Sequence record: MT611523.1
Length of the DNA: 64,000 bases
Reading direction: 5' to 3' (one strand)
Origin: Escherichia phage DK-13
Positions 261 through 64,000 of this stretch are shown here, piece after piece (the stretch's first letter is position 1; every line of letters starts with the position of its first letter). The notes under the pieces are model-generated. The model had not been told where the DNA came from. It made no database searches and saw only the letters and a list, made by a program, of their open reading frames with translations. Both the position numbers and the translations under genes were made by a program.

Positions 261-488
261 CTAAGCTTGAATCAAGCCCATATAAAATTCAGCGTCTTCC
301 GGGTGCATCCCTTCGCAATATTCATTTTGCATAAAGCGGGTAAGGTCTTCAAGAGGACCTTGAACTTCAATTTGAATACTAAAGAATTGGGTATCTTTAA
401 TGTAAGTCATACACAAAGAAGGATACCGATTACGAATAACTTCGTAAGTGTATTCAAAATCAACGATATCAATATTAACCTTAGCCAT
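261..488 (-). CDS. hypothetical small protein (75 aa)
   Basis: ATG ORF preceded by GAGGAAA SD and an early-type promoter; no recognisable domain. Confidence 0.5.
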
Positions 489-547
489 TTTATTTTCCTC
501 ATGTAGTTGATAGGTCTATAGTATCTCAACCATAGACCGTTGTAAAC
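489..547 (-). promoter_or_regulatory. sigma70-like early promoter with stem-loop and conserved leader
   Basis: minus strand reads GTTTAC (-35), inverted repeat ggtctat/atagacc spanning the -10 region, leader TATCAACTAC, then SD and ATG at 488. Confidence 0.4.
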
Positions 548-549
548 TG

Positions 550-912
550 CTATTTGAAAGCTTTTTGTAGAAGTTCAATGATTTGGTCGACGTTATTAGC
601 ATCTACAACACAATTAATAGAAACCGCCCCCGAAGGTGTTTTTGTATAATTGGAGTATTCACGGAAGCAATAAAACTCTTCTTCACTAAGTTCAAAATAA
701 TCATCACCCATGCCATCATCATTATAGATTGCACCATTAGCACAAATGATTTCGGTTACATAATCATAGCCGTCTAAACTTGATATTGATTTAACTTCAA
801 ACCAACCGCCATTTTCTTGGATGATGTCGACCATACTAGCATTCGATGAACTAATATCAATGAAAGATTTAATACGATGTGGATTGAACTCATATTTTTT
901 GCCGATTTCCAT
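550..912 (-). CDS. hypothetical protein (120 aa)
   Basis: ATG ORF with GAGGAA SD; preceded by promoter/terminator cassette; no recognisable domain. Confidence 0.55.
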   Translation of the reverse strand: MEIGKKYEFNPHRIKSFIDISSSNASMVDIIQENGGWFEVKSISSLDGYDYVTEIICANGAIYNDDGMGDDYFELSEEEFYCFREYSNYTKTPSGAVSINCVVDANNVDQIIELLQKAFK

Positions 913-949
913 TTTTATTTCCTCAGTTGTTATCAGTAGTTGATGGAAT

Positions 950-985
950 CATTATGCCTTAGCTCAAGGGGATTGTACACTACTT
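950..985 (-). promoter_or_regulatory. sigma70-like early promoter
   Basis: minus strand GTGTAC (-35-like), about 18 nt spacer, CATAAT (-10), then leader ATCAACTACTGA and SD GAGGAA before ATG at 912. Confidence 0.4.
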
Positions 986-21426: not shown

Positions 21427-21543
21427 TCAAAAGAAATAGTTAAAGTAAACACGCACATGGTCAATCATAAAAACAATTGGGAAAATGCTCAGGACAACAA
21501 ACAGTACAAACATGTTCCAAATGGCTTTAAGTAACTTTTTCAT
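21427..21543 (-). CDS. small hydrophobic peptide (38 aa)
   Basis: manual translation MKKLLKAIWNMFVLFVVLSIFPIVFMIDHVRVYFNYFF; preceded by the conserved leader and SD. Confidence 0.3.
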   Translation of the reverse strand: MKKLLKAIWNMFVLFVVLSIFPIVFMIDHVRVYFNYFF

Positions 21544-21688
21544 AATCATCTCCAGTAGTTGATAGGTTCATTATACTACAACCACTGGAGATGTATACTC
21601 TTTTATGCAAGTTTCATTAATAATAAACTAAAACAAACGCAAATTACTGGGATACACAATATCCAGATAAGACACCAGGTTTTGCTGC

Positions 21689-31342: not shown

Positions 31343-31378
31343 AATTTTCTCTCTTGGTTAATAAGTTTATTCTCCAGT

Positions 31379-31418: not shown

Positions 31419-32171
31419 TTAATTAAAAATTTCAACAGCCATGGAACGTGGTACAACAGTAAATTCACCAGCATGGACAACGTTCAGGAGTTCAACACCA
31501 TCTTCAATCCACTGGTCTGTTACCCAACCACAAATGGAACTATTAAATGGACGTTTGATTTGAACTGGTTTACACAACAAGTCAATAGGGTCACCCAGCT
31601 CGCTAACTTCTTCCAGCAGTACAGATTCACGCGGATAAAGGATAGCTTCAAGATTGTCACCTGATTCATTGACTGCAGTAAATTCAAAAATGCTTTGGTG
31701 ATTGTGGTACTTAACTGTTTTAACGGTAAATGGAGCAAATCCAAAAATACCTTTCAGTACCCGCCAACCGGCATTCAATGCATTAGTATTATCAAAATCA
31801 CCATATCCAACAAGTTGATAGGTTTTGTCAACTTTGATAGGAGTTTCTTCAACTTCTTTGAAGAGTTCAATCTCAGCTTCATAAACCATAATTTTTTCTA
31901 CTTCATTTGTATCAAGGCGACGTGCATGTAGAATATATGCTTTATCAAACCAGTTACTTTTTACAAAAGTTTCAACAATAAATTCACCTTCACCTAAAGC
32001 ATCAGTCAGAGTATTATACCCAGAAACCATAGCTGCGTTTTGAGTAATAGGTTCAATCAGTTGATAAGTTTTGTTAATTTCAATAGTCATATTTTGTTTC
32101 TCAAGTTTTAATGGTTTAATTGGGCGAACATACATACTTACAACATCAAAGTCAATAAATTCTGGTTTCAT
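31419..32171 (-). CDS. hypothetical protein (250 aa), shares C-terminal module with ORF 30851..31342
   Basis: see paralogy above; ATG start. Confidence 0.55.
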   Translation of the reverse strand: MKPEFIDFDVVSMYVRPIKPLKLEKQNMTIEINKTYQLIEPITQNAAMVSGYNTLTDALGEGEFIVETFVKSNWFDKAYILHARRLDTNEVEKIMVYEAEIELFKEVEETPIKVDKTYQLVGYGDFDNTNALNAGWRVLKGIFGFAPFTVKTVKYHNHQSIFEFTAVNESGDNLEAILYPRESVLLEEVSELGDPIDLLCKPVQIKRPFNSSICGWVTDQWIEDGVELLNVVHAGEFTVVPRSMAVEIFN

Positions 32172-32428
32172 TATGCAACCTTATTGAACATCGCCAGTTG
32201 ATTAGGTTGTACAACCATAATTTCACGACGACCTTTTGCATTTGACACGTTCAGGTAGATGCCTTTGTTCATATCAGTTTCTTTATCATATACCGCAATT
32301 TTATTGACAGTAAAGATTTTACCACGAATATTTGTAAATGCACATTCAAACGCTTTAGTCAGACCTGCTTCAGCAGCTTGAAGAGCAGACATTTCATATT
32401 GTTGGCCAATTTCAAAAGAAGTAATCAT
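32171..32428 (-). CDS. hypothetical protein (85 aa)
   Basis: track ORF 32171..32476 begins inside the promoter/leader motif; start moved to ATG 32428 after leader TCAACTACTGATGAGGATAA. Confidence 0.45.
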   Translation of the reverse strand: MITSFEIGQQYEMSALQAAEAGLTKAFECAFTNIRGKIFTVNKIAVYDKETDMNKGIYLNVSNAKGRREIMVVQPNQLAMFNKVA

Positions 32429-32495
32429 TTTGTTATCCTCATCAGTAGTTGATGAGATGATTATGTCTCTTTCCATTGGCCTTGTACACTACTTT

Positions 32496-35776: not shown

Positions 35777-35932
35777 GATATTTTTCTCATCTTACGGACG
35801 ATTGAAAACTCAGTATGGATTCATTATATACTATTCATCTTTTATGTACACTACTTTTTCACCTTTAACGCTTTTATTTTTACTGTGTATAATGGTTCTA
35901 AGGTCTTTGGCCTTTTGTTAACCCAGAATACT

Positions 35933-36547
35933 TCAGTAAGAAAGAACGGAAAGATTCCATAATTTATAGTCTTCCCATCTATAAATGCTCTCAATAGAGT
36001 CCACGCGTAGCGTAGTTCCCGCAGGGAACATCATCTCATCTTCATCATTTACTAATTGCAAGTTTGAAGAACGAGTTATTTCAGGATATAGTCCGTTGAA
36101 CTCTTCAGGAGGTGCCGCACAAATCATTTTAAAAATCGCTTCCTGATAATCAAATGCGAATGGTGCATCATTAATACAGAAAATATTTTTGGTTCCATAG
36201 AAGCTAAAGGAAGCAAAGTTACGCGCAACACTGAAATCTTTGGAGAAACTCATTACACGGTCAAACTCAATCGTAGCACCAACACATCCTACGGTTTCAA
36301 GATATGCCAAAGTTTTCTTAGAAATCCCGCGATATAACTTACCAGGCACAGCAGAAGTCAAATTCTTACGAATAATTTTGTTCAAAGTTTCCTGGATAGT
36401 GTCTGGCTTATTTTCCATACACTGCCAGAGTGTACTCTGTTCCAACTCAGAGTAAATTTCATCAATTTCAATCTGGGTATTTTCACGAAAATATTCACAT
36501 TTAACTGCATTGATGTACTCTGCTAATTGGTGACTTGCGTACAGCAT
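35933..36547 (-). CDS. modA: ADP-ribosyltransferase ModA-like
   Basis: track ORF begins inside leader motif; ATG at 36547; R-S-E-class ART-like motifs (GKLYRGIS; MSFSKDFSVA); tandem with paralog; position as T4 modA. Confidence 0.55.
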   Translation of the reverse strand: MLYASHQLAEYINAVKCEYFRENTQIEIDEIYSELEQSTLWQCMENKPDTIQETLNKIIRKNLTSAVPGKLYRGISKKTLAYLETVGCVGATIEFDRVMSFSKDFSVARNFASFSFYGTKNIFCINDAPFAFDYQEAIFKMICAAPPEEFNGLYPEITRSSNLQLVNDEDEMMFPAGTTLRVDSIESIYRWEDYKLWNLSVLSY

Positions 36548-36591
36548 TTTATTATCCTCATCAGTAGTTGATAGGAACATCTTAACGTGTC

Positions 36592-37152
36592 TTATTGCTC
36601 TTGTACACAGTCAAGAACATAATAATCACCAACAAATCCAGCATCAACTATCACGAATTTCTGGTCAACTGGAACAAACCATTCAAGCTCAGAATCAATC
36701 ATGTCCATGTATTCTTCACGTCTTAACGTTGCCGCCTGTTCGGAACCAGAAGCTGTATTGAAGAATTCCAGTGGAACATCAAGCGCGAGCTTACGCATTA
36801 CATCATGGTAACAAAAAGCTTTTGTCTGATTCAATCTGACGATAGTCCTTGTCACATATTCCATTGCAGCAAAATCCCTGGCAATACCATAGTCTTCTGT
36901 AAAGGAGGTTATCCTTCCAAATTCAAAAGGTTGCATTGATTCTTTTGCTTCATCTAACAAATCAATCTCTTGCTGGGTCACCCCACGATACAAGACTGTA
37001 TCAGGTATAGACAACCTTGACTTGATGATTGAGTTAACGTTTGAATGCAAGGTCTTATCAACCTTTGATGTGCGGCATTCAAATAATGAAGCTATCTCCA
37101 TTTCACTAAATTTTAACTGGTTGGGTTCGGTATCAGATTTGATGATGTTCAT
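36592..37152 (-). CDS. modB: ADP-ribosyltransferase ModB-like
   Basis: 186 aa; ART-like motifs (VLYRGVT; RITSFTEDYGIA; DSELEWF); paralog of adjacent ORF; position as T4 modB. Confidence 0.55.
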   Translation of the reverse strand: MNIIKSDTEPNQLKFSEMEIASLFECRTSKVDKTLHSNVNSIIKSRLSIPDTVLYRGVTQQEIDLLDEAKESMQPFEFGRITSFTEDYGIARDFAAMEYVTRTIVRLNQTKAFCYHDVMRKLALDVPLEFFNTASGSEQAATLRREEYMDMIDSELEWFVPVDQKFVIVDAGFVGDYYVLDCVQEQ

Positions 37153-38785: not shown

Positions 38786-38979
38786 AGGAAACCACGTTTA
38801 AATTCAACTTTACCATCATCACAACGGATTTCAATATTGAATTCTAAAGAATCATCATCGTGCATCATAAACGAGTGCACGACAACCTCGTCAAACACAC
38901 CCAGACCATACTTAAAATGTACATCATGGGCAATAACTTCGTCTAAAGTTTTGTTCGGTTTAATCCAACGGTTTAACAT
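38782..38979 (-). CDS. hypothetical protein (65 aa)
   Basis: ATG ORF preceded by TATAAT and leader TATCTCAACTACAGAGGAG. Confidence 0.45.
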   Translation of the reverse strand: MLNRWIKPNKTLDEVIAHDVHFKYGLGVFDEVVVHSFMMHDDDSLEFNIEIRCDDGKVEFKRGFL

Positions 38980-39024
38980 AGTATTCTCCTCTGTAGTTGA
39001 GATAATTATACCATCTCTATTAAA

Positions 39025-39050
39025 AGCAAAAAGGGAACCCGAAGGTTCCC
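39025..39050 (-). terminator. rho-independent terminator after soc
   Basis: minus strand GGGAACC-UUCG-GGUUCCC followed by UUUUUGCUUUU. Confidence 0.6.
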
Positions 39051-44535: not shown

Positions 44536-44829
44536 TTATTCACCTGTAACCCATTGAACAATTTTGCTATTGTCAAATGAAGCATCGCAATACAGAACAT
44601 AGTTATACTGCATAACGTCACCAGAAGTCAATTTGTCAGATACTTCTTTAACCATATCAGGGCGGTCACGTTTAGTTATGTTCATAATATCAGCATAAAT
44701 CTGATGTTCAACATCAGTCTGGTCGGCAGTCATAGACCACTCACAAAGGTCTTTATCAAGTCCAGCAGTAACTGGAGCTGTACCACATGATGCTACGGTA
44801 AGAATTGCCGCGATTAATAACTTTTTCAT
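44536..44829 (-). CDS. sp: periplasmic superinfection-exclusion protein Sp (spackle)-like
   Basis: 97 aa with N-terminal signal peptide MKKLLIAAILTVASCGTAP; same length and position (between 61 and 41) as T4 sp. Confidence 0.55.
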   Translation of the reverse strand: MKKLLIAAILTVASCGTAPVTAGLDKDLCEWSMTADQTDVEHQIYADIMNITKRDRPDMVKEVSDKLTSGDVMQYNYVLYCDASFDNSKIVQWVTGE

Positions 44830-44886
44830 TTCAATCTCCTCAGTAGTTGATAGGGATAATATACAGCATTATCCCTTTGTTGTACA

Positions 44887-45126
44887 CTATTTTAATGCAT
44901 CTTCCAGATAAATTTTGCGGAATTTGCGTTTTGTCTGACGAATCTGACGCTTGGTAGGTTTCACAGGAAATTCGAAGAACTCTACGTATTCTTGTTCATA
45001 ATCATTGTGGCCGACTGAAAGAACTAGTTCCCAGCTGCTTACGGTGCGTTGGATAAACATATTATGCTTACCAAAAGATTTATTCCAAAAAGAACTAGGG
45101 GTAGGTTTCATTAATGCGATATTCAT
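44887..45126 (-). CDS. hypothetical protein (79 aa)
   Basis: ATG ORF; basic C-terminal tail. Confidence 0.4.
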   Translation of the reverse strand: MNIALMKPTPSSFWNKSFGKHNMFIQRTVSSWELVLSVGHNDYEQEYVEFFEFPVKPTKRQIRQTKRKFRKIYLEDALK

Positions 45127-45330: not shown

Positions 45331-45648
45331 TTAGATTTCCTCGCAGAAGGCCCAGGCAGCGTGATAAACTGTTGCGCCTTTAGTATCATTTAAACAAACC
45401 ACGTCAACCGGTGCAATCACACGATAAAGACGGGGTTCTCCTCCATATGAGCGAGCTGCTCTTCCTGCATAGATACGTGCCAAACCAATATCTTCAGTAA
45501 AAAACACACGCCCTAAATTTTTCTTACGCCCAACTTCTGACAGAACACCAGTTGCATCAGGAGGGCAAAGCATATTTTGGATTCCAGCATTAGAGCTTGA
45601 CCCATGATAATAAACTTTGTATTCTGCCTTGCAATCAATGGTTTTCAT
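45331..45648 (-). CDS. hypothetical protein (105 aa) with PARP-like NAD-binding signature
   Basis: YYHGSSSNAGIQNMLCPPDATG...GRVFFTEDIGLARIYA resembles the H-G-S and Y-F-A-D blocks of H-Y-E-class ADP-ribosyltransferases; ATG with leader/SD. Confidence 0.5.
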   Translation of the reverse strand: MKTIDCKAEYKVYYHGSSSNAGIQNMLCPPDATGVLSEVGRKKNLGRVFFTEDIGLARIYAGRAARSYGGEPRLYRVIAPVDVVCLNDTKGATVYHAAWAFCEEI

Positions 45649-45685
45649 TTTATTCTCCAGTAGTTGATAGGGTCATTATAACATA

Positions 45686-45710
45686 AGAAAAAGGGGCTGT
45701 AAGCCCCTTT
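45686..45710 (-). terminator. rho-independent terminator after gene 41
   Basis: minus strand AGGGGC-UUACA-GCCCCU followed by UUUUUCUU. Confidence 0.55.
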
Positions 45711-45719
45711 TAAAATATT

Positions 45720-49537: not shown

Positions 49538-49780
49538 TCATTTTGATTCCTTGATGATAATTACTTGTGCGTTTGATTTACGTTCAGCAACGAGTGCCCA
49601 GATAAATGCAATAAACCATCCGACCATTGTCCAACCTAACAGAAGGTTAACAAAGAAGATTCCGCAATTACTTTTGGTACCACGCAGCAGCGCGATAATC
49701 CACGGCAGAAAATATGCCAGTGCAGCCAGGAAGAAAGAACCAGCCCCAAGAACAACAGTACCCGCAATTAATGTTTCCAT
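49538..49780 (-). CDS. imm: immunity protein Imm-like (superinfection exclusion membrane protein)
   Basis: 80 aa with two hydrophobic segments; immediately downstream of gene 43 as T4 imm. Confidence 0.55.
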   Translation of the reverse strand: METLIAGTVVLGAGSFFLAALAYFLPWIIALLRGTKSNCGIFFVNLLLGWTMVGWFIAFIWALVAERKSNAQVIIIKESK

Positions 49781-49817
49781 TTTAATATCCTTAAGTTATT
49801 CATCAGTTGATGAGGTA

Positions 49818-49847
49818 ATCATACGGCAATCCATTGCCGTTGTAAAC
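49818..49847 (-). promoter_or_regulatory. sigma70-like early promoter with stem-loop
   Basis: minus strand GTTTAC (-35), inverted repeat ACGGCAAT/ATTGCCGT in the spacer, TATGAT (-10), leader TCATCAACTGATGA. Confidence 0.45.
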
Positions 49848-63774: not shown

Positions 63775-63947
63775 AATTTAATTTCCTTAGCTACTGAACA
63801 AAATACACCACGGTCACAAATCATTTTAATATTAAGGTCAATTATGGTATACCACACATCCAGGCTAGATATTTCAGTTACTAGAACAGCTTTGCCGTTG
63901 ATTGAATAATACTGGTTGACTTTAATTTCTTTATCTTGGATAGTCAT
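63771..63947 (-). CDS. small hypothetical protein (58 aa)
   Basis: manual translation MTIQDKEIKVNQYYSINGKAVLVTEISSLDVWYTIIDLNIKMICDRGVFCSVAKEIKL; preceded by conserved leader CATCAACTACTGATGAGGAAAAC. Confidence 0.35.
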   Translation of the reverse strand: MTIQDKEIKVNQYYSINGKAVLVTEISSLDVWYTIIDLNIKMICDRGVFCSVAKEIKL

Positions 63948-64000
63948 TATGTTTTCCTCATCAGTAGTTGATGGGATAATGATACATCATTCAAAGGGGC

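Follow-up and report, generated by a model that had tools for sequence, protein, structure and literature searches.

The early promoters (Pe) of bacteriophage T4 combine an A-rich UP region, a GTTTAC-type -35 element, a spacer of 17-18 bp, a TAnnnT -10 element and a start 7 nt downstream. Their alignments show "additional regions of consensus" (Hinton 2010, PMC2988021), and the comparative promoter logos published by Nolan et al. extend no further than the start site. Two other described systems come close to the element studied here. The first is the target of the endoribonuclease RegB acting with S1, a site of 11 single-stranded nucleotides (GGAG/U-RAYARAA; T4 optimum GGAGAAUAAAA), for which deletion analysis has shown that RegB can do without any sequence 5' of GGAG, and in which GGAA is a poor substrate (Durand et al. 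2006, PMC1702504); once RegB has cut an early transcript, RNase G processes it further close to the 5' end (Uzan & Miller). The second is the promoter-early stem-loop (PeSL) cassette of phages RB49 and phi1, whose recombination was shown experimentally (Arbiol et al. 2010, PMC2839356). Here we describe a leader that recurs in front of ten genes of Escherichia phage DK-13, one of them the ortholog of T4 sp (spackle) with its start codon at 44829. The analyzed stretch (record MT611523.1; 64,000 nucleotides) is referred to as the window, and its positions are used throughout.

Comparison with T4 and its relatives identifies the leader as the predicted start site and initially transcribed segment (+1 to about +12) of a T4-type early promoter cassette, fused to the ribosome-binding site (RBS). 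Judged by sequence, it is a largely familiar feature, present letter for letter in T4 and found here in a Gaprivervirus.

A start block in register with early promoters

The core of the leader is the 9-mer ATCAACTAC, which occurs in eight exact copies in the 64-kb window against 0.46 expected, a number reached in 0 of 100 shuffles. An earlier note, made by reading the DNA without database searches, had claimed that the leader is conserved before at least ten minus-strand genes. This claim holds: in front of all ten start codons that it listed (488, 912, 21543, 32428, 36547, 38979, 44829, 45648, 49780 and 63947) stands the motif or a close variant of it, eight of the ten copies being exact and the variants being ATCAACTGA before 49780 and CTCAACTAC before 38979. 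The eight exact copies and both variants are all on the minus strand, and they serve the orthologs of sp, imm, ndd.4, frd.2, frd.3, mrh.2 and 55.6, a modB-like gene and two ORFans. If up to one mismatch is allowed, the window contains 14 matches against 4.75 expected; five one-mismatch matches (6497, 9623, 43082, 52865 and 59345) are within coding sequence and have no promoter, a number close to that expected by chance. No exact copy was found in the window away from a promoter, internal cistrons without promoters included. A literature search for the 9-mer string returned only unrelated primer matches and, within the papers covered, none discussing it.

In nine of the ten copies the motif begins 6 nt past the -10 hexamer. 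Its first A is then the 7th nucleotide after the -10 element, the canonical sigma-70 start, and is therefore the predicted transcription start. The distance from the motif to the ATG varies between 20 and 32 nt over the ten copies. Since the distance to the -10 element is fixed and that to the ATG is variable, the block is anchored to the promoter and its start site and not to the RBS. The placement between the -10 element and the Shine-Dalgarno sequence (SD) given in the earlier note can be narrowed to this one register.

The promoters of the copies follow the pattern GT(G/T)TACA-N17/18-TAnnnT, and eight of the ten have a GTTTAC-like -35 element at 17-18 bp from a TAnnnT -10 element. The exceptions are the copy at 63972, whose -35 element lies beyond the window end, and the copy at 39001, which has a MotA-box-like TGCTT instead. 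A scan with GT(G/T/A)TAC-N17/18-TAnnnT gave approximately 20-25 early-type promoters on the minus strand of the window. When all early promoters are taken together, the information content at +1..+10 is 0.3-0.7 bit, compared with about 0 in the spacer at -28..-18; CCY at -3..-1 reaches about 1 bit in the early promoters of the window, and an A-rich UP-like region gives an information peak at -43..-40, with A as the consensus base, both in the window and in T4. At its 5' end a cassette has an AT-rich tract and the stop codon that closes the preceding gene; its 3' end holds the SD and the start codon of the gene that follows.

The window shares with T4 the promoter architecture outlined at the beginning, and the promoters of both genomes serve orthologous genes (sp, imm, ndd.4, frd.3 and 55.6). 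The two differ in detail: the window favours GTGTACA over the GTTTACA of T4, its -10 hexamers are diverse compared with TGGTACTAT of T4, its discriminator is CCY and not acaact, and the block continues with TGA(T)GAGGA, whereas T4 continues with TGATACGGA(TTT)GGAG. Some promoters of the window are absent from T4 (frd.2), and vice versa.

On balance, we favour the view that the leader works as a promoter-proximal module, which would combine an efficient A start, a short open 5' untranslated region (UTR) leading to a strong SD, use of this SD as a RegB target, and homogenisation of the copies by recombination. As a T4-type early promoter, the cassette would be read by unmodified host sigma-70 RNA polymerase directly after infection, and the CCY/ATCAAC context would fix an efficient start with a pyrimidine at -1 and A at +1. 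The very short unstructured 5' UTR could allow the ribosome to load at once on the adjacent strong SD, while the SD and its A-rich spacer would double as a RegB/S1 cleavage site, later inactivating the early mRNAs. Recombination among the cassettes would reinforce their near-identity within the genome and make them junctions of gene gain and loss. If nothing but the efficient start and the 5' UTR were at work, the cassette would still be a compact, portable high-expression module. In T4-like genomes the cassette is a precise marker of early promoters and of where transcription and translation truly start, and it points to probable sites of gene gain and loss. Conservation of the exact sequence and its restriction to the early class leave room for other explanations, which are weighed below.

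Spread, class specificity and conservation

Identity of the window is 96-97% with the Gaprivervirus phages UPEC01, the TH series and MN01 and falls to about 93% with VR26. A 40-nt consensus query matched several hundred T4-like phages of Escherichia, Shigella, Klebsiella, Salmonella and Yersinia, T4 included. The whole T4 genome was assembled and scanned for early promoters. In seven of them ATCAACTAC is found with the same spacing to the -10 element (167050; 163637, motA; 73536, trna.4; 70660, e.8; 65378, denV; 53907, nrdC.8; 27044, imm.1), and near-variants are found at six more, including those of sp, ndd.4, nrdC.10 and asiA. The T4 trna.4 promoter (GTTTACA...TACTAT-taccct-ATCAACTACTGAGGAGAATAAAATG) is almost the same as the cef promoter of the Klebsiella Jiaodavirus KP179. 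The form in Dhakavirus AnYang is TGATACTAT-agacct-ATCAACTAA, and the start blocks of RB69 are ATCAACTAC, ATCAACCAT and ATCAGCTAA. RB49, which lies outside Tevenvirinae, has TTGACA-type promoters starting with ATCGAAAAC, ATCGACAAC or ATCAAAACG, a degenerate form of the block. The motif search that the earlier note had proposed, made here in the window and in relatives, finds the block or variants of it at early promoters of T4, RB69, AnYang and KP179; in the window its copies are tied to promoters and never used at internal cistrons lacking one.

Starts with at most two mismatches to the 9-mer occur at about 30-40% of the early-type promoters per genome (8 of 25 in the window, 13 of 45 in T4, 7 of 19 in AnYang and 5 of 18 in RB69). 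We compared them with experimentally mapped T4 middle-promoter starts (n = 55, Hinton's table), all of which lie in the register to the -10 element that is predicted for the block. A start resembling ATCAACTAC is present at one of these 55 promoters, and four start with ATC. By this comparison the +1..+9 block is specific to the early promoter class, and a general sigma-70 start preference is ruled out by the middle-promoter control (1 of 55). Similar starts are found outside the T4-like phages at two classical, very strong sigma-70 phage promoters, namely T7 A1, where cc directly precedes the annotated start ATCGAGAGG, and lambda PL (GATACT-gagcac-ATCAGC, with ac before ATCAGCAGG). For such promoters, too, the general idea is that sequence downstream of +1 adds to promoter output. 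An A-T-C start after a pyrimidine is common to these promoters and the T4-type block, but only the first 3-4 nt are shared, whereas the T4-type block extends over 9-12 nt and is repeated many times per genome. A conserved "downstream sequence region" was reportedly described for T5 early promoters by Kammerer et al. in the EMBO J in 1986.

Its early-class specificity, its conservation across genera and its overlap with the start site, which is a classical repressor position, would also suit an operator. In that case the duplex ATCAAC(TAC) at +1..+9 would be bound by a phage or host protein or sensed by ADP-ribosylated polymerase, with Alt stimulation or early shut-off as the result. Both processes leave room for such an element: the abrupt shut-off of early promoters a few minutes after infection, which is independent of ModA and AsiA, is unexplained (Hinton 2010, PMC2988021; Uzan & Miller), and Alt stimulates only some early promoters irrespective of their -35 and -10 elements, with differences between promoters in which these elements are identical (Hinton 2010, PMC2988021). 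However, most early promoters of each genome lack the block, while shut-off is described as general, and the dyad ATCA-N5-TGAT is found in about half of the window and T4 copies but in 0 AnYang or RB69 copies; nor did the analysis yield a candidate binding protein. We therefore regard an operator as quite unlikely, and its dyad form is ruled out, as no inverted repeat is conserved.

A broader version, that +1..+9 is a true early-class cis-regulatory element and more than a good start site, appears improbable to us; it could be (a) the target of silencing or of Alt stimulation or (b) a shared start that lets abortive pppAUC... products prime other early promoters in a feed-forward burst. Either version, if true, would account for conservation across genera of the sequence itself as opposed to its composition. 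Conserved between genera like the promoter hexamers, yet missing at middle promoters and in the logos of Nolan et al., the block is an inexpensive, well-defined handle on the questions of Alt responsiveness and early shut-off.

To describe conservation between genera, we compared orthologous promoters (sp, imm/imm.1, ndd.4, mrh.2 and srd) of T4, the window, AnYang and RB69, which represent four genera, by mean pairwise identity. The identity of +1..+9 is 0.64, close to that of the -10 hexamer (0.65) and the -35 hexamer (0.66), whereas the 18-nt spacer has 0.35, the discriminator 0.44 and the segment +10..+18 also 0.44. In these alignments, then, the block is kept as strongly as the core hexamers while the neighbouring non-coding sequence is saturated, a pattern that speaks for a function or, alternatively, for conversion to one sequence time and again. 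Within the lineage of the window, the -10 hexamers of the family are diverse and the 9-mer is invariant.

Several observations weigh against reading the block simply as a constrained working part of the promoter. At some orthologous promoters (srd, frd.3) the start blocks are different, and the flavour of the discriminator and of the downstream extension differs genome by genome. In T4, AnYang and RB69, nearly every ATCAAC start goes with the non-consensus -10 hexamer TACTAT (TGrTACTAT), a linkage that could reflect common descent of a promoter subfamily and not selection on the block. The differing start blocks, the genome-specific flavours and the TACTAT linkage are signs of cassette descent and intragenomic homogenisation. 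Moreover, a block carried by only about 30-40% of early-type promoters is not required for early promoter activity, and the function of T4 middle promoters that lack it shows that sigma-70 RNA polymerase does not generally depend on it. The copy at 39001 is out of register with its -10 element. The G fraction of the start region in early promoters outside the family is 0.14-0.18 compared with 0.19-0.21 in the background; with so weak a depletion, the purely compositional idea of easy escape or lack of structure fails to explain the conservation of an exact sequence. Finally, +1 in DK-13 is a predicted position, derived from the promoter sequence.

Descent might also account for the block in full. 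It would then have no function of its own, and one promoter-leader cassette would have been duplicated around the genome and kept similar by the very active homologous recombination of T4-type phages, as in PeSL-like gene conversion. Whole-cassette families are indeed seen in T4 (tttcacaaaac-GTTTAC...TGGTACTAT-acaact-ATCAACTAC-tgatacgga) and in AnYang, in the form given above (TGATACTAT-agacct-ATCAACTAA); other families coexist with them (ATACTGAGT and the GGGGCC stem type), orthologous promoters, such as those of srd and frd.3, can have different start blocks, and indels end at cassettes, PeSL recombination having been shown in RB49 and phi1 (PMC2839356). Conversion alone, however, would homogenise the spacer too, yet the 18-bp spacer is at the random level of 0.35 while +1..+9, at 0.64, equals the -10 and -35 elements. 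In addition, the same start is kept from T4 to the Klebsiella Jiaodavirus and is recognisable, though degenerate, in RB49. Homogenised ancestry without function is an unlikely explanation in our view.

The leader at the RNA level

The 3' part of the leader resembles RegB/S1 targets; like these, it lies in the SDs of early genes, and it is predicted to be single-stranded. The full RegB/S1 consensus is found in three of the ten copies, before 45648 (GGAGAATAAAA, optimal), 36547 (GGATAATAAAA) and 32428 (GGATAACAAAA). Four others (44829, 38979, 21543 and 49780) show a partial fit, with GGAG or GGAU and an A-rich flank, and the remaining three (488, 912 and 63947) have GGAA, a poor RegB substrate. 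RegB homologues with about 60% identity are present in the VR-series phage VR25 (Gaprivervirus-named) and in TH54; the regB region lies outside the window. The RegB/S1 site begins at GGA and does not include ATCAACTAC, which experiments show not to be needed for cleavage in T4. Since nothing 5' of GGAG is needed, RegB does not explain the ATCAACTAC block, and RegB recognition of the whole leader is ruled out by the published deletion experiments (PMC1702504). The suggestion of the earlier note that RegB is relevant thus applies to the SD-proximal part, which fits GGAG/U-RAYARAA fully in three copies and partly in four, and not to the block.

Enhanced ribosome loading, which had also been suggested, finds no support in pairing with rRNA. 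The best duplex of the leader with E. coli 16S rRNA (rrsH) has -8.3 kcal/mol, whereas shuffled 12-mers pair more strongly on average (-9.4 kcal/mol), and no complement of at least 6 nt was found. An epsilon-type translational enhancer acting by pairing between mRNA and 16S rRNA is ruled out by this lack of complementarity beyond chance. When folded alone, the leaders have minimum free energies of 0 to -0.7 kcal/mol; a stable 5' hairpin AUCA/UGAU is rejected in view of near-zero values (0 to -0.6 kcal/mol) and of the absence of TGAT in AnYang and RB69. The accessibility of the translation initiation region is at or above the mean of random 9-mer controls in eight of the ten copies, a slight trend that is significant in none. 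A search of the whole 64 kb on both strands gave 0 Rfam families at the gathering threshold. The hammerhead-like string CUGAUGAG in four copies is a coincidence of TGA + T + GAGG, and a hammerhead ribozyme is rejected with 0 Rfam matches. An NAD-capping consensus, a DnaA box and a sigma-dependent pause element were compared with the sequence by eye, and none fits.

These results bear on the idea that the whole leader is an RNA device, namely an extended RegB site, a hammerhead-like core or an epsilon-type enhancer. The GGAG and GGAU SDs with A-rich 3' flanks and the four occurrences of CUGAUGAG would agree with it, but RegB needs only 11 nt from GGA, Rfam and 16S rRNA gave no match and no pairing, respectively, and three copies have GGAA; such a device is highly improbable, and for the ATCAACTAC block it is already contradicted.

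A signal confined to the 5' end of the RNA is a further explanation that we consider unlikely. Here the end pppAUCAACUAC would be read after transcription, with S1, a modified ribosome, an RNA-binding protein of the phage and the 5'-end-dependent decay machinery (RppH, RNase E/G) as conceivable readers, and early messages would gain preferential translation or a programmed lifetime. The block is always located at the predicted 5' end, directly before a strong SD, and is specific to the early class; in the lineage of the window it is more uniform than the -10 hexamers, and the copy at 39001 keeps eight of the nine letters despite its changed promoter type and register. The RNase G processing of RegB-cut early transcripts near their 5' ends also agrees with such a signal. 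On the other hand, no copy is found at an internal cistron or without a promoter, there is neither 16S complementarity nor a stable structure, RegB/S1 needs nothing 5' of GGAG, and the reviews (Hinton 2010; Uzan & Miller) describe no RNA-binding factor of this specificity.

The earlier note had proposed a shared post-transcriptional signal. The conservation on which it relied stands; as to the signal, the alternative that the note itself had named, that the motif is merely the promoter +1 region, largely describes what was found, since the predicted +1 is the first base of the block, its spacing to the -10 element is fixed, and it forms the start region of T4-type early promoters in at least five genera. 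The block may have an additional role at the RNA level.

Individual cassettes, stem-loops and neighbouring genes

All cassettes described here are on the minus strand. The sp promoter (44827..44895) reads GTGTACA(44887-44881)-N17-TATATT(44863-44858)-atccct-ATCAACTAC(44851-44843)-tGAGGAGattgaa-ATG(44829). Its -35 element GTGTACA (44881..44887) is overlapped by the stop codon TAG of the upstream gene (44887-44889). A stem-loop formed by AGGGATAAT (44876-44868) and ATTATCCCT (44860-44852) surrounds the -10 element TATATT (44852..44876) and corresponds to the PeSL type "stem-loop overlapping -10". The initially transcribed block ATCAACTAC (44843..44851), with the A at 44851 as the predicted start, is followed by the SD GAGGAG, an A-rich spacer (GGAGATTGAAA, a partial RegB/S1 match to GGAGRAYARAA) and the ATG of the spackle ortholog (44827..44841). 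The genes at 44829 and 49780, previously labelled sp-like and imm-like, are indeed the sp (spackle) and imm orthologs.

Of the remaining cassettes, that of the frd.3 ortholog (486..547) is GTTTAC-N18-TACTAT-agacct-ATCAACTAC(511-503)-atGAGGAAAATAAA-ATG(488), with a stem-loop GGTCTAT/ATAGACC over the -10 element. The frd.2 ortholog has GTGTAC-N18-CATAAT-gattcc-ATCAACTAC(944-936)-tgataacaactGAGGAAATAAAA-ATG(912) at 910..980, preceded by a GGGGACCttcgGGTCCC-T-run terminator; T4 has no promoter at the matching position. For the ndd.4 ortholog (21541..21598) the cassette is GTATAC-N17-TATAAT-gaacct-ATCAACTAC(21563-21555)-tGGAGATGATT-ATG(21543), the spacer ATCTCCAGTGGTTGTAG being complementary to the initially transcribed segment (ITS) and the SD. 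The imm ortholog (49778..49847) carries the variant GTTTAC-N18-TATGAT-tacctc-ATCAACTGA(49811-49803)-tgaataacttaaGGATATTAAA-ATG(49780), with a stem-loop CGGCAAT/ATTGCCG between the -35 and -10 elements, and the cassette of the 55.6 ortholog (63945..63984), TATCAT(63984-63979)-tatccc-ATCAACTAC(63972-63964)-tgatGAGGAAAACATA-ATG(63947), has its -35 element past the window end.

The variant before the mrh.2 ortholog (38977..39028) is TGCTTTT(MotA-box-like)-N11-TATAAT(39010-39005)-tat-CTCAACTAC(39001-38993)-aGAGGAGAATACT-ATG(38979). It has no GTnTAC -35 element, and CTCAACTAC starts 3 nt and not 6 nt past its -10 hexamer, i.e., 3 nt out of register. The gene is preceded by tttTGCTTTTaatagagatggTATAAT, which resembles a MotA-box middle promoter, while the T4, AnYang and RB69 orthologs have a GTTTAC early promoter.

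Two cassettes were hidden by gene calls. The cassette at 32426..32489, GTGTAC-N18-CATAAT-catctc-ATCAACTAC(32453-32445)-tgatGAGGATAACAAA-ATG(32428), precedes an 85-aa open reading frame (ORF) without a T4 homolog, and its GGATAACAAAA matches the RegB/S1 consensus. That of the ModB-like ADP-ribosyltransferase (36545..36608), GTGTAC-N18-TAAGAT-gttcct-ATCAACTAC(36572-36564)-tgatGAGGATAATAAA-ATG(36547), contains GGATAATAAAA, also a match to this consensus. The ORFs 32171..32476 and 35933..36580 are over-called through promoter and leader (MERDIIISSTTDEDNK-M... and MFLSTTDEDNK-M...), which confirms that both translate the leader as STTDEDNK; their true starts are the SD-supported 32428 and 36547. 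Two adjacent ModA/ModB-like ADP-ribosyltransferase genes (35933-36547 and 36592-37152) have 33-36% identity to T4 modB in tblastn, and each has its own early promoter, with predicted +1 at 36572 and 37173. The second of them gave only a weak match to DRAT in Pfam.

Before the 105-aa ORF (45331-45648) the cassette (45646..45712) consists of a terminator hairpin AGGGGC-TTACA-GCCCCT with the -35 element (GCTTAC) in its loop, followed by TATAAT(45680-45675)-gaccct-ATCAACTAC(45668-45660)-tGGAGAATAAA-ATG(45648). This ORF, labelled PARP-like in the earlier note, has no T4 homolog and no Pfam match. In VR26 the promoter-leader is conserved, but the allele that follows it is highly divergent (74% DNA identity). 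The Pfam search of the downstream ORFs gave no match above the cut-offs, protein 4 having only sub-threshold matches to Sld5 and DRAT, an ADP-ribosyltransferase family.

Most copies thus have a predicted stem-loop in one of the five positions relative to the promoter that are described for PeSLs. Stem-loops lie over the -35 element at 45668, over the -10 element at 44851 and 511, and between the boxes at 49811; an upstream terminator (GGACC-TTCG-GGTCC type) is found at 944, 39001 and 63972, and pairing of the spacer with the ITS at 21563. No strong stem-loop was predicted at 36572 and 32453. The spacer-ITS pairing at 21563 extends to the SD, and the AnYang ortholog keeps it in other letters (ATCTCCATTA / TAATGGAGAT). 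T4 denV likewise pairs CTCCTGTAG with CTACAGGAG, annotated as "imp. inverted repeat C/C'" with a putative terminator in the 1986 record X04567. RNA reading through from upstream would be terminated by such stems or have its SD masked, whereas transcripts begun at the promoter would stay open; as the spacer at 21563 is complementary to the ITS and SD, the SD would be masked only in read-through RNA.

In their order of stop codon, AT-rich tract, early promoter, stem-loop, SD and ATG, and in preceding small genes of unknown function, the DK-13 cassettes resemble PeSLs. Both also mark borders of insertions, deletions and replacements between close relatives, on the DK-13 side as seen by sequence comparison. 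In UPEC01, 723 bp with two genes are inserted between window positions 45710 and 45719, and the insert has a terminator-GTTTACA-TACTAT-tatccc-ATCAACTACTGATGAGGATAATAAAATG cassette of its own. UPEC01 and VR26 have other sequence in place of the gene at 44894-45122, and the breakpoint, 44893, coincides with the 5' edge of the sp promoter. In these alignments indels and replacements among close relatives end at cassettes. RB49 PeSLs differ from DK-13 in their TTGACA-type -35 elements and GGGG/CCCC stems; the PeSL paper describes no conserved transcribed block and terms the T-even versions "analogs, not homologs" (PMC2839356).

The window contains other start families as well. One of them, with +1 at 35816, 21984 and 18085 (minus strand), has the form GTGTACA-N17/18-(T/C)ATAAT-ga(a/t)tcc-ATACTGAGT and is located before srd and two other genes; ATACTGAGT resembles ATCAACTACTGAG minus CAACT. 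A third family, with +1 at 31378, 20932 and 20520 (minus strand), reads GTGTACAAACTCTTGGGGyCrGAGTATAATGrCCCC, its GGGGCC/GGCCCC stem enclosing the -10 element, and is nearly identical to the T4 motB promoter (T4 7179).

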